A stretch of DNA of 28,367 nt from the IMG/VR virus record IMGVR_UViG_651053023_000009, one strand, 5' to 3'. Made by a program: the position numbers. Below are positions 3,001 through 9,000 of this stretch, one piece after another. Each line of letters starts with the position of its first letter. Position 1 is the first letter of the stretch. The stretch comes from a virus. Its lineage: Duplodnaviria > Heunggongvirae > Uroviricota > Caudoviricetes.

Positions 3001-6000
3001 CGATGGATGCTGCCGTCAATGTTTCCGGCATTAATATCGCCAGGCCACAGAGCGTAGGCCAGTTCTTCATCCAGCGTTTTCCATGTCTGCTTGTATTCGC
3101 GACGAATGGCTGCAGTGGTGGGGTTGATTTTTCCTGCTGAGTTTTCAGTGTTCTGCCGGTTAACTTTGGCGCGGGCGAGATCAACAACAGAAGTATATGC
3201 ACCACCTTCTTTGCGCTCCTTTTCCTGGCGTTTTTTACGGTCGAGAAAATATGCCTGAACGTCGGGCCATTTGGCGGTTGGTTTTAAATCACGTCTGGCA
3301 TCGTTGATGTATTCAATCTGACGTTCCGGATACATGGCGTTAATTTCTTTAGTCCGGATAATTGCCTCTGCGAGGTGTCCGTCAAAGGTCATCATGTCGT
3401 CATCGCCAAGAAGACCGCTTGCGTTGATGACCATATCCACGGTGACGTTTTCATGTGCGCCAAACTTAACGAGAACAGCGGCCTGTTTGTCGTCGGATAA
3501 CTGATTAAAGTTAACAATTTCTGTATTCGGCTCTGGTTCGACCGGGACAAAGGAAGACGATCCCTCATCCCAGCGGTTTTCCTGCATATACTCGGTATCC
3601 CAGGAGTCGATAGCAGGGCGGGGCATGCCGGGTTTATCCTCGCAGACAAGAAATTTATAAGCGCAGTCCTGAGCAGCCGGATATTGCTCCAGGAATTGCC
3701 AGGTAAATTTGGCACGGGCGCGGCGTTCGTCACCGGCTTCAATGGCAGTGGCTACAGCAACTGCCCCTTCTTCCTTTATTGCCTGTTCGTCCGGAATGGC
3801 GGCGCAAATAAAGACTTTACTCATTTTGTTTTAACCTCATTAAAGATTTAATGGTGAACAAATCCCTGCCATTGCTGGCATATATAAAAAGAATCTGATT
3901 TTTGAATTACCGCACTCAGGATTTTGAGGCAGGTGTTTCAGTAAAATTCTGGTGTATAATTTTTTCTACCGGATAACAGTTACCGGGAATTTTCTGTTCT
4001 TTCATTGCGGCAATGCATTCCTCCTTGCTGTCATAAATACCCGTTACCATATCAACCGGTTCGCTGTTAGCCATAAAAACAAGCATGACTGAGGCCCACA
4101 TTACACCCATGATTTTTTCTCCTGGAAAATGTCAAGTTTAAGGAGGGCGAGTCGGGAAAGCATGGAATTATCATTGAGAAGATAAGGTTCATATTTCCTC
4201 ATATTAATGGCATCCTCAGTGAAGTCTTTATTACTGAGCTGAATGCCAATATCAAAACAACCTTCAGATGTATTAACGTTTGGTAATAACGTTTCCATTA
4301 TCGCGCCCTCAACAATGAATTTTGTGATGCGGTGCCTGGTGCCTCCAGGTGACGTTAACCAGTTAACAATTAACGCCGGATACAGAGAACCCACCCATAA
4401 GAACCAATACGGAAGTCAACTGGCCTTTTTAACTGTTCCGCGTGCGCTGAGCCGCATTCACCGCATCACAAAATTCACTTTAAAAAGGGCGGACATCAGC
4501 CAGCAATGAAACTGATGCCGCCAAAAGGTAATCTACATGGGTTGTTGCAGCGGGGGGGGCACTCAGGCGTATGGTCAACCTGACAACCCGGTGTTATCTC
4601 GAGGAAAGGATAGCCTCGCCATACTTACCGCCGCGCCATTTCGCGGAGTGCCACAACCAGAAGCGCACGGTCGAATTAAATTTAACGACAGGCTATCTAT
4701 GAACCATCAACCTCGCCGTGCGCTTTCGCGTTATGCCCTGACTTTTCAGGGATATATCCTTTCAGTAAACTGTCAGTGCCGGATTCTTATCCGTGTCCGG
4801 CGCACGACCACACGTGACAGCGTGTTGATCTCCATTTTTAACCGCATCCCAATGGAGGATAAAATGCCAACAAAACTATGCCCAGTCTGTAATTCTTCGT
4901 CTGATTTTTCAGAGAAGAATGGTTATTATATTTTTGATTGCCCGAAACACGGTGTATTCCATATATCAAAACTTGATGGGATATTTGTGAAACCAAGTCA
5001 GTATCAGGCTGACAAGTTAAATAAAATTCTCAATGCCAAAAGAGCGTCAGGCTATACGGAACCTATAGAGGTTTTACCGCGTCCTCGTCTTGTGGAACTG
5101 GATTAAACCAGTGCTCCTGAATCGCTCGTATTTTTACCCTCGGATGATTGCCGGGGGTGATTATTAATTCTGGCGGACATGGTTCTCCATTATGACAAAT
5201 TGCGCTATAAGTGAAATCAGCCAGAGCAGTGCCGGTCATTATTATTCCGAACTTATCAAGCAGCGAGAGCAACTCACGCAAACAGGAGTTATCAGTTTTT
5301 TCGTTATAAAATGAATCCCCTGATGCAGAGAGCATTTCACCTCGCTCTGCGATGCGTTTGGCCATTTTCCAGAATTCTTTTTTTGAATACTTTTCCTCGA
5401 CATGAAAACCCATCGCCGAGGCAATCCGCTTTGCAGCTTCTTCAGTATCCTGGTTGTTTGTTACCGAAACAGAGTACAATCCGGTAAACGCATCGCGCAC
5501 ATTACGAGCCATATTATCAGTGTCTTTTTTCGTTACCGATTCCAATGCAAGTTCGTTCAGGTGTTGACGGAGTGTCTGTGCTGCAATCTCCTGGATTGAT
5601 AGTGGTAAATCTTTAAATTCCATCTTTAACCCCGTTAGCCGTTAGATTTTATCGAACTGGAAAGCGCCTGTTTAAACTCACTGAAGCTGAGAGCTTCTTC
5701 GCCTTCGGCAAGGCCTTCGAAGTATTCTTCGTAAGCCTTTTCCATGATTGCGTCGAAATCCATATTACTCACCTGAATTTCTTTCCAGCCAGCGATGCGC
5801 GCCAGATTCGGTTTTAAACGTTTTGCTTTTGGTATACGTCATCGCGGTGAATGTGCCGTCCTGGTTGGGGAACACGCCACATACCAGAGATTCGCTGTTG
5901 CCAAGATCGATAGTATCCATGCTGACCTCATTTCCCCTTAACGCCGGGGTGGCGGAACTGTTTGCTGAGAACACCGTGCGGTGTGTTGATGTAAACAAGA

Positions 6001-9000
6001 TTAGCCATGGCTAACATATTGGTCAAGTGATTTTGTATGTTATGGCTAACATAATTGATATAATAAAAGATAACTCATTGATGATGTTATCTTTTATTTG
6101 TCCGCTGACGGGCTTTTAGTAATTCTTCAAAGAGTTTATTGAAATTTTTTACTCGAGCTCGCATTTCGGCGAGCTGGGTATCCTGTTCTGATTCTGGCAG
6201 TGCATTAAACAGCTCAAGGAGCTCTAGTTCTTTGGGGGCTAAGGCAACCGGCTTCTCAACAGGTGGTGTTGGTTGCTTGTCTTCATCGCCAAATAGAATC
6301 CATGTTGGTGAGCATTGCAATACTTTGCTGAGGGCAAAAAGGTTCTTCCCTGTAGGTTCACTATCATCCCGTTCCCATTGTGATACAGACACATGGGAGA
6401 TTTTCAGGGCTTTAGCAAGAGACCTTTGGGTGTGTTTGAGGTTTTTCCGACGATACCTAATGCGTTCGCCGATGGTTAAATTTTTTGTATCCATAGTTAG
6501 CTAATGCTAAATCGTATTGACTATGTTTTTGTTAACATCTATTTTGTTAGCCATGGCTAACAGCTAAGGTGTTTTAAATGCTTAAAACTGACGCTCTTTT
6601 GTATTTCGGTTCAAAAACAAAACTTGCACAAGCAGCAGGTATTCGTTTGGCTTCGCTTTATAGCTGGAAAGGGGATTTAGTTCCCGAAGGTCGCGCGATG
6701 CGTCTACAGGAGGCATCTGGCGGGGAGCTTCAGTATGATCCCAAAGTTTATGACGAATATCGTAAGACGAAGCGGGCGGGGCGGTTGAACAATGAAAATC
6801 ACTCCTGAACAGGCTCGTGAGGCTCTGGATGCCTGGATATGTCGACCAGGAATGACACAGGAGCAGGCGACGATATTAATCACTGAAGCATTCTGGGCTT
6901 TGAAAGAGCGCCCGAACATCGATGTTCAGCGTGTCACATATGAAGGTGGCGCGGTTGATCAGCGAGCGCTTAGCGTTAATCGAGTGAAGATATTTGAACG
7001 CTGGAAGGCTATCGACACCAGGGATAAGCGTGAAAAGTTCACAGCGCTAGTGCCTGCAATTATGGAGGCTATCCGGATTAGTGATTTCAGGTTGTATCGT
7101 GAAATTAGTGACGGAAAGAGCATTACGTACATGATCGCTGGGTTAAATAAAGAATATGGCGATGTGGTGGAGTCCGGACTGCTTTTTGCAGATCCTGCCG
7201 TTGTAGATCGTGAAACTGACGAACTTATAGAAAAAGCAATTGCTTTCAAGCTTGCGTATCGACAGCAATACCAACAAAAAGCTGGATGGAATTATGAGCC
7301 TTCTTTTTGCTGAACGCCCACTGGTTATAAACACACAGCTTGCGATGAAGATTGGCTTAAACGAAGCCATTGTGTTGCAGCAACTGCATTACTGGTTGAG
7401 AGATACCAATTCCGGCATGGAATGTGATGGTGTTCGCTGGATTTACAACACAACGGAACAATGGCTGGCGCAGTTCCCGTTCTGGTCAGAGTCAACGTTA
7501 AAGCGCGCGTTTGCAAGTCTGAAAACGCTGGGGCTTTTGCGTTGCGAAAAGCTCAATAAATCAAAGCGCGACATGACCAATTTCTACACGATCAACTACG
7601 GGAGCGATCTTTTAGATGGTGGCAAATTGAGCGAATCCATCAGTTCAAAATGCGTCGCTCCATCAGGTCAAAATGACATGATGGAAGAGGTCAAAATGAA
7701 ACGCTCCATTGGTTCAAAACGACCCAATGTCATCGGGTCAAAATGGCCCGATGATCCTACAGAGAATACAACAGAGATTACTACAGAGAATAAAAACACT
7801 TTTCGTCCGGAAGCTTTGCAACCGGACCAGCAGACGGCTGAACAGGATTTTTTAATCCGGCACCCTGACGCAGTTGTGTTTAGTGCGAAAAAACGGCAGT
7901 GGGGTAGCCAGGAGGATTTGGCGTGTGCGCAGTGGATCTGGGGGCGGATCGTGGGTCTCTACGAACAGGCCGCCAGTGATGATGGCGAGATCATGCGACC
8001 AAAAGAGCCTAACTGGACTGCCTGGGCCAATGACGTGCGCACAATGCGGATGCTGGATGGCAGAAGCCACAGACAAATTTGCGAAATGTTTGGTCGGGTA
8101 CAGCGAGATCCATTCTGGGTCAAAAACATCATGAGTCCGTCAAAGCTTCGCGAAAAATGGGATGAGCTGGTTATTCGCCTGGGGCGTTCGCCAATAAAGC
8201 GTTGTGTGAATCATATTTCTGAACCGGATACCGAAATTCCGCCTGGTTTCAGGGGATAAGTGTTGATTTCAGGTCATGAGGTAATTTTAAGGGGGACTTG
8301 TGGCAAAAGTTTTTACACAAGAAGAGCGGGAAAAAATTAAAGGGCAGGTGGTGGAACTCGTGCGCCAGAGCGGTCGTGAGACGCTACGGCAACTGGAAGC
8401 TAAAACAGGTGCGACAAGATATCTGATGAGCATTCTTGCCAGAGAGCTGGTTGCCAGTGGTGATGTATATCACTCTGGCTATGGGTTGTTCCCGTCAGAA
8501 CAGGCTCGTAAGGACTGGCAAAACGCCCGCAAAAAACTCTCGAGGGCAAAGGTGAAGAAACCTGTTGTGGTTGATCCGGGCCTTATCTGGACATTACCCG
8601 ACGGAGAAATACGCCGCTACGACAGGCGTATGAACATAATCTGTCGCGAGTGCCGGAAGAGCGAAGTTATGCAGCGTGTATTGGCGTTCTATCAGGGATA
8701 TGCCTAGAATTGTCACAGGTAATGAAATTAAAGAGTATTGGTTCGGATATGAATTGACATTTTCGCGGCACAGAGCTAAAAATAGCCTACTTGTTGGTTT
8801 TGTGTGAAAAGCAGACATTTTGAGGCTCAGGATTTGTTATCAAATAAGACCAATACTTATCTATATTAATACACATTAAATACTGTGCAATACATTATTG
8901 CATTTTATTAGATAAGCGATATTTAGGGAAAAGAAAAGTCATAGAAAACAGGCCGCTATTTGTTGTTGGATTTTATAGGCTATATCTAGATTATCTTGCC

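Follow-up and report, generated by a model that had tools for sequence, protein, structure and literature searches.

Operators of the probable DicA/DicC immunity switch at the dicA-dicC-dicBp locus of a Qin-type lambdoid prophage carrying stx2e

We analysed the 28,367 nucleotides (nt) of the virus record IMGVR_UViG_651053023_000009, here called the window, and concentrated on a palindrome that is found on both sides of a repressor gene. The repressor gene dicA lies at positions 6087-6494 on the reverse strand and encodes a protein of 135 amino acids (aa) with a helix-turn-helix (HTH) domain at residues ~7-71, followed by a short C-terminal domain without peptidase. On the forward strand dicC (6578-6808) encodes a Cro-like regulator of 76 aa that matches the Pfam family P22_Cro. 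The two genes are transcribed in divergent directions, with 83 base pairs (bp) between them. A leftward promoter, dicBp, lies beyond the end of dicA and a rightward promoter, dicCp, lies in front of dicC. The locus is the dicA-dicC-dicBp locus already described in Escherichia coli K-12, and the palindromes are very probably the operators of the bistable DicA/DicC immunity switch of a Qin-type lambdoid prophage that carries stx2e. The observation is therefore correct but ordinary. An earlier note, made from the sequence alone, had read the region as an immunity region; the core of that reading holds on the basis of sequence, conservation and the experiments on K-12 Qin, though the system is neither novel nor merely a candidate.

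The identity of both regulators is clear. The window repressor is identical to K-12 DicA at 132 of 135 residues (98%) and reached 234.5 bits in the NCBIfam model for DicA (NF007257; cut-off 101). The Cro-like protein is identical to K-12 DicC at all 76 residues, with 159.5 bits in NF007282 (cut-off 130). We compared the region 5900-6700 with 5,426 complete E. coli genomes and observed an at least partial match in 3,826 of them, over the full length in 850. Its identity is 100% with E. coli O141:H4 strain P13-6, an Stx2e (Shiga toxin 2e) strain, and across its 801 bp 96.9% with the dicA-dicC locus of the Qin prophage in K-12 derivatives. In all these matching genomes the Prokaryotic Genome Annotation Pipeline (PGAP) annotates dicA, dicC and a DUF1391 (ydfA) gene. 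The layout agrees as well: in K-12 Qin the dicB operon, dicBp and dicA follow each other with dicC on the opposite side, the operator positions at Oc, Om, Oa and dicBp match those in the window, and a gene for a Rem-type antirepressor is found downstream of hokD. K-12 Qin is a truncated remnant, whereas the prophage in the window keeps a YdaT/CII-like gene, replication genes, int, xis, exo and stx2e.

The exact 14-mer TTAGCCATGGCTAA occurs at 6001-6014 and 6547-6560, as the earlier note had reported, and these are its only 2 copies; no third exact copy was found anywhere in the 28,367-bp window. In 100 dinucleotide-preserving shuffles of the window we detected no exact match (0 expected by chance). 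The repeat that both places truly share is 16 nt long (TTAGCCATGGCTAACA). One of two imperfect copies that had been listed was correctly placed at 6497-6510 (TTAGCTAATGCTAA, three mismatches to the 14-mer), whereas the other, put at about 6040-6049, is best placed at 6034-6051 (TGTATGTTATGGCTAACA), where the right half is perfect and the left half degenerate, with two mismatches to TGTTAG-N6-CTAACA. Allowing up to three mismatches, the 14-mer was found three times compared to 1.21 expected, a count that is not significant by itself, and TGTTAG-N6-CTAACA was found 10 times compared to 9.25 expected, which is chance level overall. Four of these 10 matches cluster within 5999-6562 and the remaining ones are at chance level. 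As the mismatch counts do not exceed chance, the case for the palindrome rests on the two exact copies, on the clustering and on the conservation in relatives.

We also searched IMG/VR for the exact 16-mer and obtained 44 loci; one scrambled 16-mer, used as a control, returned 2. A dicA homolog lies 51-144 bp from the repeat in 31 of the 44. Among the 13 loci without dicA, 12 are coding or start-codon contexts (ATG GCT AAC, read as 'MAN'). The palindrome is thus not common outside immunity regions, an outcome that would have counted against the operator reading according to the earlier note. The last locus lies on a 139-kb viral contig, L100 (IMGVR_UViG_3300045988_131152), for which tblastn found no DicA homolog in the 13-kb locus. 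Four repeats resembling DicA operators (GTTAGCCATGGTAAACA, GTTAGCCATGGCTAACA, GTTAACCAAGGTTAACA and GTTAGCCAAAGTAAACA) are arrayed there at ~11230-11320.

The rightward copy of the palindrome is contained in the operator Oc (OR1-like; 6544-6563, TTGTTAGCCATGGCTAACAG). We use the names Oc, Om and Oa as given by Bejar et al. (1986, 1988), with the definitions as relayed by Yun 2012 and by Ragunathan and Vanderpool 2023. The promoter dicCp, the analog of PR, spans 6517-6545 on the forward strand (-35 TTGACT at 6517-6522, 17-nt spacer, -10 TATTTT at 6540-6545) and was the sole sigma-70-like match in a promoter scan of 5850-6650. Oc abuts its -10 and covers the start-site region. Two weaker sites precede Oc. 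Om (6528-6540) lies inside the dicCp spacer and consists of two outer half-sites without a centre, which form the palindrome TGTTAACA (6530-6537). Oa (6495-6512, AGTTAGCTAATGCTAAAT) lies between the dicA start codon and the dicCp -35, 7 bp upstream of the latter. For K-12, Yun 2012 mapped the dicC start site and placed putative -35 and -10 elements in the dicA-dicC intergenic region.

The same study provides the experimental basis for Oc. It prints the K-12 operator, a 20-nt inverted repeat, from the other strand (TTGTTAGTCATAACTAACAA), and reports that cloned Oc titrates DicA, that DicA represses a reporter via Oc in vivo and that binding is lost when one A in the CTAACAA arm is changed to C. 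On Oc DicA represses dicC and activates dicA (Yun 2012). The DicA site at dicCp counted as a gold standard in the Reg-Seq study, which recovered it. The window Oc aligns base for base with K-12 Oc (TTGTTAGTTATGACTAACAA); 16 of 20 positions are identical and no outer half-site base has changed, which includes the A on which binding depends. At OL1, the corresponding operator on the leftward side, the centre is CCATGA in K-12 compared to CCATGG in the window. The window allele with its CCATGG centres presumably behaves like the K-12 allele.

On the leftward side the exact palindrome is contained in OL1 (5999-6016, GATTAGCCATGGCTAACA; K-12 sequence at the same place: TTAGCCATGACTAA). The promoter dicBp, the analog of PL, spans 5998-6026 on the reverse strand (-35 TTGACC at 6026-6021, 17-nt spacer, -10 TAATCT at 6003-5998) and reads into the ydfA-like gene, ydfB, the DicF-like RNA, dicB, exo, xis and int. 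OL1 fills its spacer and part of its -10. The earlier statement that the palindrome copies overlap the promoters is therefore true on this side, where the 14-mer overlaps the -10 by 3 nt. On the right the 14-mer starts 1 nt past the -10 and only the full 18-20-bp operator overlaps it, by 1-2 nt. OL2 (6034-6051) is the degenerate copy described above and lies 8 bp upstream of the dicBp -35, so both degenerate copies (OL2 and Oa) sit 7-8 bp upstream of a -35 hexamer. A third leftward operator is stated in the literature; we found no convincing candidate beyond OL1 and OL2. Bejar 1988 and Ragunathan and Vanderpool 2023 describe dicBp as a PL-like promoter directly upstream of ydfA on which DicA acts as a strong repressor. 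The predicted physical DicA sites at this promoter are OL1 and OL2, and their coordinates give precise candidate targets for footprinting. From centre to centre, Oc and OL1 are separated by 546 bp, and one may speculate that DicA loops the DNA between them. A stem-loop on the reverse strand (6062-6098; -13.8 kcal/mol, z = -5.1) with perfect 13-bp arms lies at the 3' end of dicA and overlaps its stop codon. It is probably the dicA terminator, which would divide dicA transcription from dicBp.

To assess conservation we scanned IMG/VR for related loci and obtained 80 (L003-L082) with a 94-100% identical DicA, of which 78 yielded dicA together with its flanks. In all 78, Oc has essentially invariant outer half-sites (TGTTAG...CTAACA), and the same is true for TGTTAG...CTAAT of OL1, TGTTAG...CA(T/A)ACA of OL2, the two -35 hexamers, Om and Oa, with Om invariant in the main clade. 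The dicBp elements CTTGACC and CTAATCT are also conserved in the relatives. More distant homologs, with a 68-78% identical DicA, have identical helices 2 and 3 (LAKALKISHVSVSQWERDDS) and keep the layout of Oc, Om, Oa, OL1 and OL2 despite diverged flanks. The position of OL2 is conserved in all relatives, and the site is more symmetric in the distant homologs, for example TGTTAGCCAAAACTAACA.

The operator centres showed a different behaviour. Across the 78 loci the central 6 bp of Oc (6551-6556), OL1 (6005-6010) and OL2 (6040-6045) always follow the pattern YYATRR and vary recurrently by transitions only. Nearly every Y/R combination is represented, in prophages that hardly differ in repressor, half-sites and flanks. 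The number of different centres was 9 at Oc, 8 at OL1 and 10 or more at OL2, whereas with four biallelic sites no more than 5 haplotypes can arise unless changes recur. Among the 45 unique haplotypes of the main clade, diversity at the Oc centre columns was 0.20-0.49 compared to a mean of 0.017 at dicA third-codon positions, and the variable Oc columns exceeded dicA synonymous sites more than 10-fold. On a neighbour-joining tree made without the operator columns, positions 6552, 6556 and 6006 each required 7 parsimony steps, whereas the maximum within dicA was 4. The number of loci is modest, a strain often harbours more than one DicA-type prophage (up to 7 places per genome), and the adjacent ydfA region is a recombining mosaic with similar homoplasy, a caveat for the centre variability. 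A compensatory preservation of centre palindromy was rejected, as symmetric centres occurred in 22 of 78 loci, close to the 25% expected at random. Co-variation of the centre with DicA residue 43 was rejected as well. This residue is D in the window and in the distant homologs and G in K-12; G43 was confined to ..ATAA centres, a pattern that follows the K-12 Qin clade, and D43 was found with all centres. The CCATGG centre occurs at Oc in only 2 of 78 relatives. Because centres vary among relatives, the double CCATGG of the window is one allele among many and not a conserved feature.

That a centre not contacted by the repressor can modulate operator affinity by indirect readout is known for the P22 and 434 operators. 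The combination of a fixed purine/pyrimidine pattern with a fast turnover of bases fits such a tuning of affinity. We nevertheless advance only tentatively, as a rather doubtful proposal, that the centres are a recurrent, transition-only polymorphism hotspot at which operator strength has been tuned repeatedly and independently in Qin-type prophages. The pattern would also fit a palindrome centre that is a local hotspot of mutation because it is bound by protein or prone to form a hairpin. If the proposal is true, tuning would act via the uncontacted centre and not via a changed repressor specificity, Stx-converting prophages included, and the induction threshold would vary with the centre, as perhaps would the known temperature sensitivity of DicA binding. 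The hypervariability of the operator centres may be new; the switch system itself is already known.

The following switch can be proposed. DicA dimers would recognise the 18-20-bp inverted repeat TGTTAG-YYATRR-CTAACA via an HTH similar to that of P22 c2. When bound at Oc, DicA would block dicCp and keep dicC, the CII-like gene of the YdaT family and the replication genes silent, and it would also activate its own transcription. When bound at OL1 and OL2 it would block dicBp, with ydfA, ydfB, DicF, dicB, exo, xis and int remaining silent. DicC, the Cro analog, would counteract DicA once expressed, giving two stable states. Derepression would proceed by antirepression and/or by DicC-dependent switching under stress. 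It would not depend on RecA-stimulated self-cleavage because DicA is without a LexA-like peptidase domain.

The candidate antirepressor is a Rem homolog (11987-12247, forward strand; 86 aa) that is 71% identical to K-12 Rem and carries a 4-residue insertion relative to it. By analogy with Qin it would be the cognate antirepressor of DicA. Rem itself was found via homology searches begun from GfoA, and Qin Rem derepresses dicBp 165-fold (Ragunathan and Vanderpool 2023). The Gifsy systems GfoR/GfoA and GtgR/GftA (Lemire 2011) resemble the DicA class in that a short repressor without cleavage site is inactivated by binding of a small antirepressor encoded outside the immunity region; the Gifsy operator sequences are unrelated. 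The region upstream of the rem homolog (11830-11986) includes ACTTAGTTAGCGC; its similarity to a DicA half-site may be due to chance.

The general architecture is shared with known phages. As in phage lambda (cI/cro), the repressor gene is located between two operator clusters over divergent early promoters, and the logic of positive autoregulation and of bistability with Cro is the same. In contrast to lambda, the C-terminal domain belongs to another family, autocleavage is missing and there is only one well-symmetric site per side. The immC region of P22 shares the divergent promoter layout, and DicC matches the family of its Cro. DicA residues 7-71 align to P22 c2 (PDB 1adr, 2r1j) with E=8e-20 and ~57% identity (37/65, counted from the alignment), and the homology is confined to these residues. 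Judged by this alignment, the true structural relative of the DicA DNA-binding domain is P22 c2. The operators of P22 approximate ATTTAAG-N4-CTTAAAT; they are inverted repeats of 18 bp in which the outer half-sites are conserved, whereas the centre varies and is not contacted. The half-site sequence differs from that of DicA, and so does the recognition helix (SNVAISQ in c2 compared to SHVSVSQ in the window).

There are several observations that weigh against the proposed switch. Only 3 of 6 bases of the dicBp -10 agree with the consensus. Of the two promoters that had been suggested earlier, TTGACT-17-TATTTT was recovered by the scan, whereas TTGACC-17-TAATCT is present as a sequence but was missed because of this weak -10. 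RegulonDB lists the DicA site at dicB as 'low evidence, location unknown', as quoted in the Reg-Seq paper. Four of the 20 positions of Oc are not the same in the window and in K-12. The promoter scan (5850-6650) did not reveal a recognisable dicA promoter, and neither Yun 2012 nor Reg-Seq found one. There is no LexA box (CTGT-N8-ACAG) in the interval from the hok terminator to the rem homolog. LexA control of the rem homolog was rejected for this reason, which sets it apart from the LexA-controlled Gifsy antirepressors. The sole CTGT-N8-ACAG in the window (11553-11568) lies inside the hok/sok region, and at least one box occurred in 27 of 100 shuffles. Finally, in vivo experiments in K-12 showed no binding of DicA to isolated Om or Oa (Yun 2012). 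A lambda-like model of three cooperating operators is therefore unproven, and the same is true for Oa as a DicA operator, as its sequence, like that of Om, does not differ between the window and K-12. There is no gap between Oa and the dicA ATG, and we could not recognise a Shine-Dalgarno sequence; Oa may serve as a site for DicC or may belong to a dicA transcript with a short leader or none.

This leads to the alternative that the degenerate sites Oa, Om and OL2 are sites for DicC and that DicA uses only the two good palindromes. Oa and Om are invariant in the relatives and conserved in distant homologs even though DicA did not bind them in isolation in K-12, the operator preferred by Cro in lambda and in P22 is, by analogy, the repressor-proximal one, and overexpressed DicC is said to repress dicA in O157:H7 (as cited in the literature). 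The conservation of Oa could equally reflect a role in the dicA 5' leader or in translation initiation, and that of Om its place in the dicCp spacer. We regard this division of sites as a genuine possibility that falls somewhat short of being probable, and it would refine the DicA/DicC switch and not replace it. A far more radical alternative is that the two exact copies arose by chance or are non-functional, for example as a duplicated sequence containing an NcoI site. The low conservation of the CCATGG centre, the frequency of symmetric centres near the random expectation and the 12 coding or start-codon occurrences of the 16-mer elsewhere in IMG/VR would agree with it. The shuffles yielded no copy at all, however, the outer half-sites are essentially invariant at three positions in all relatives, the copies are located on promoters and binding to the K-12 ortholog has been proven (Yun 2012), so that the probability left to chance is next to nil.

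The two remaining alternatives concern the class of the switch. In a classical lambda-type switch the repressor would be inactivated by RecA-stimulated autocleavage, and both the layout (OL with PL, repressor, OR with PR, cro) and the homology of the N-terminal domain to cleavable P22 c2 would be in keeping with this. P22 c2 (216 aa) carries a cleavable C-terminal S24 domain and can be induced by the SOS response, whereas the 135-aa DicA is non-cleavable: the Pfam search of the repressor returned HTH-type families (HTH_3) only and no Peptidase_S24, which bears out the earlier description of an HTH-only protein. In K-12, DicA is shorter than P22 C2 and without the Ala-Gly cleavage bond, mitomycin C leaves dicBp uninduced, DicA and DicC form a bistable switch and spontaneous switching is recA-independent (Ragunathan and Vanderpool 2023). 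An autocleavage mechanism is hence extremely unlikely, and the earlier expectation that induction does not involve it is supported and was already published for the K-12 ortholog. Nearly as improbable, though not quite to the same degree, is a RacR/YdaS/YdaT-type module, of the Rac family or resembling a toxin-antitoxin cassette, that uses Rac-type operators. The gene order racR-ydaS-ydaT does correspond to that in the window (short repressor, divergent Cro-like gene, YdaT/CII-like gene), with DUF1391 genes on the leftward side in both cases (ydaF in Rac, ydfA in Qin-type prophages). The third gene is YdaT-like with E=2e-6 and above the YdaT_toxin cut-off, DicC gave a weak YdaS_toxin score (18.3 bits, under the Pfam cut-off of 30), and Lemire 2011 lists both DicA and RacR among the short non-cleavable repressors. 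The repressors and the Cro-like proteins of the two systems are nevertheless without detectable similarity: in BLASTP comparisons with the MG1655 proteins, DicA and RacR gave E=35, and DicC and YdaS no alignment. Their operators differ too. The MG1655 Rac immunity region contains no TTAG-N6-CTAA site, and the motif reported for YdaT in Rac is ATGATT-N6-AATCAA. Homology to RacR/YdaS was rejected on the basis of these protein and motif searches. The label 'RacR-like' consequently applies to the class of repressor but not to its sequence. YdaS and YdaT are now seen as Cro and CII analogs and not as toxins, according to published work.

The locus, its operators, the non-cleavable repressor and the antirepressor have been described in K-12 from 1986-1988 onwards, with new studies in 2012 and 2023. 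Here a locus of the DicA type belongs to an stx2e prophage that is inserted next to ompW. In strains of this kind, the expression of Stx2e is therefore probably governed by the DicA/DicC/Rem switch and not by a RecA-cleavable CI, which recent work on porcine Shiga toxin-producing E. coli assumes. Control by DicA, DicC and Rem may help explain differences between strains in the Stx2e response to SOS-inducing drugs.

The genes on both sides of the switch follow the Qin pattern. On the leftward side we observed the ydfA-like gene, ydfB, an open reading frame (ORF), the DicF-like RNA, dicB, a DUF1482 gene, the exonuclease gene, xis and int. The ydfA-like DUF1391 gene (5765-5920, reverse strand; Pfam DUF1391 and PGAP annotation of the 100%-identical locus) is the first of the leftward dicB operon. 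Its distal cargo, the cell-division inhibitor gene dicB (4101-4298, reverse strand), was located from the PGAP annotation of the matching locus L002 (18202-18399, offset 14101). Rfam found no DicF in the window at the gathering threshold; in an E-value search we obtained a sub-threshold match to RF00039 at 4487-4537 on the reverse strand (32.5 bits, gathering score 48, E=1.2e-4) over the full model length. Its position between a ydfC-like ORF and dicB agrees with K-12, and it is putatively a divergent DicF in the expected place upstream of dicB. A sub-threshold STnc100 match (4321-4475) was reported as overlapping the DicF-like match.

On the rightward side dicC is followed by the YdaT-family gene, a replication-region ORF and a DUF977 gene. 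The YdaT-family gene (6792-7313, forward strand; Pfam YdaT_toxin 27.6 bits, cut-off 21) is intact and overlaps the end of dicC by 17 nt, whereas K-12 Qin has only the truncated pseudogene ydfX at this position. YdaT has been published as a CII-like activator in Rac, and from its BLASTP match to Rac YdaT the window protein is a probable CII analog.

The window starts at the integrase gene, and in the matching genome NZ_CP080223 the integrase abuts ompW. The genes stx2eA and stx2eB are found at 16875-18116, preceded by tRNA genes (16537-16787). Given the stx2e genes and the integrase by ompW, the window represents an Stx2e-converting prophage in its left and central part. A gene for a SIR2-family protein (9076-10107, forward strand), possibly anti-phage defence cargo, is situated between the replication region and hok/sok. 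A sok RNA match was detected at 10310-10477; its 3' end is overlapped by a transposase gene of the insertion-sequence type ('integrase core domain'; 10436-11509, reverse strand) that neighbours the SIR2 gene and is located just upstream of hokD.

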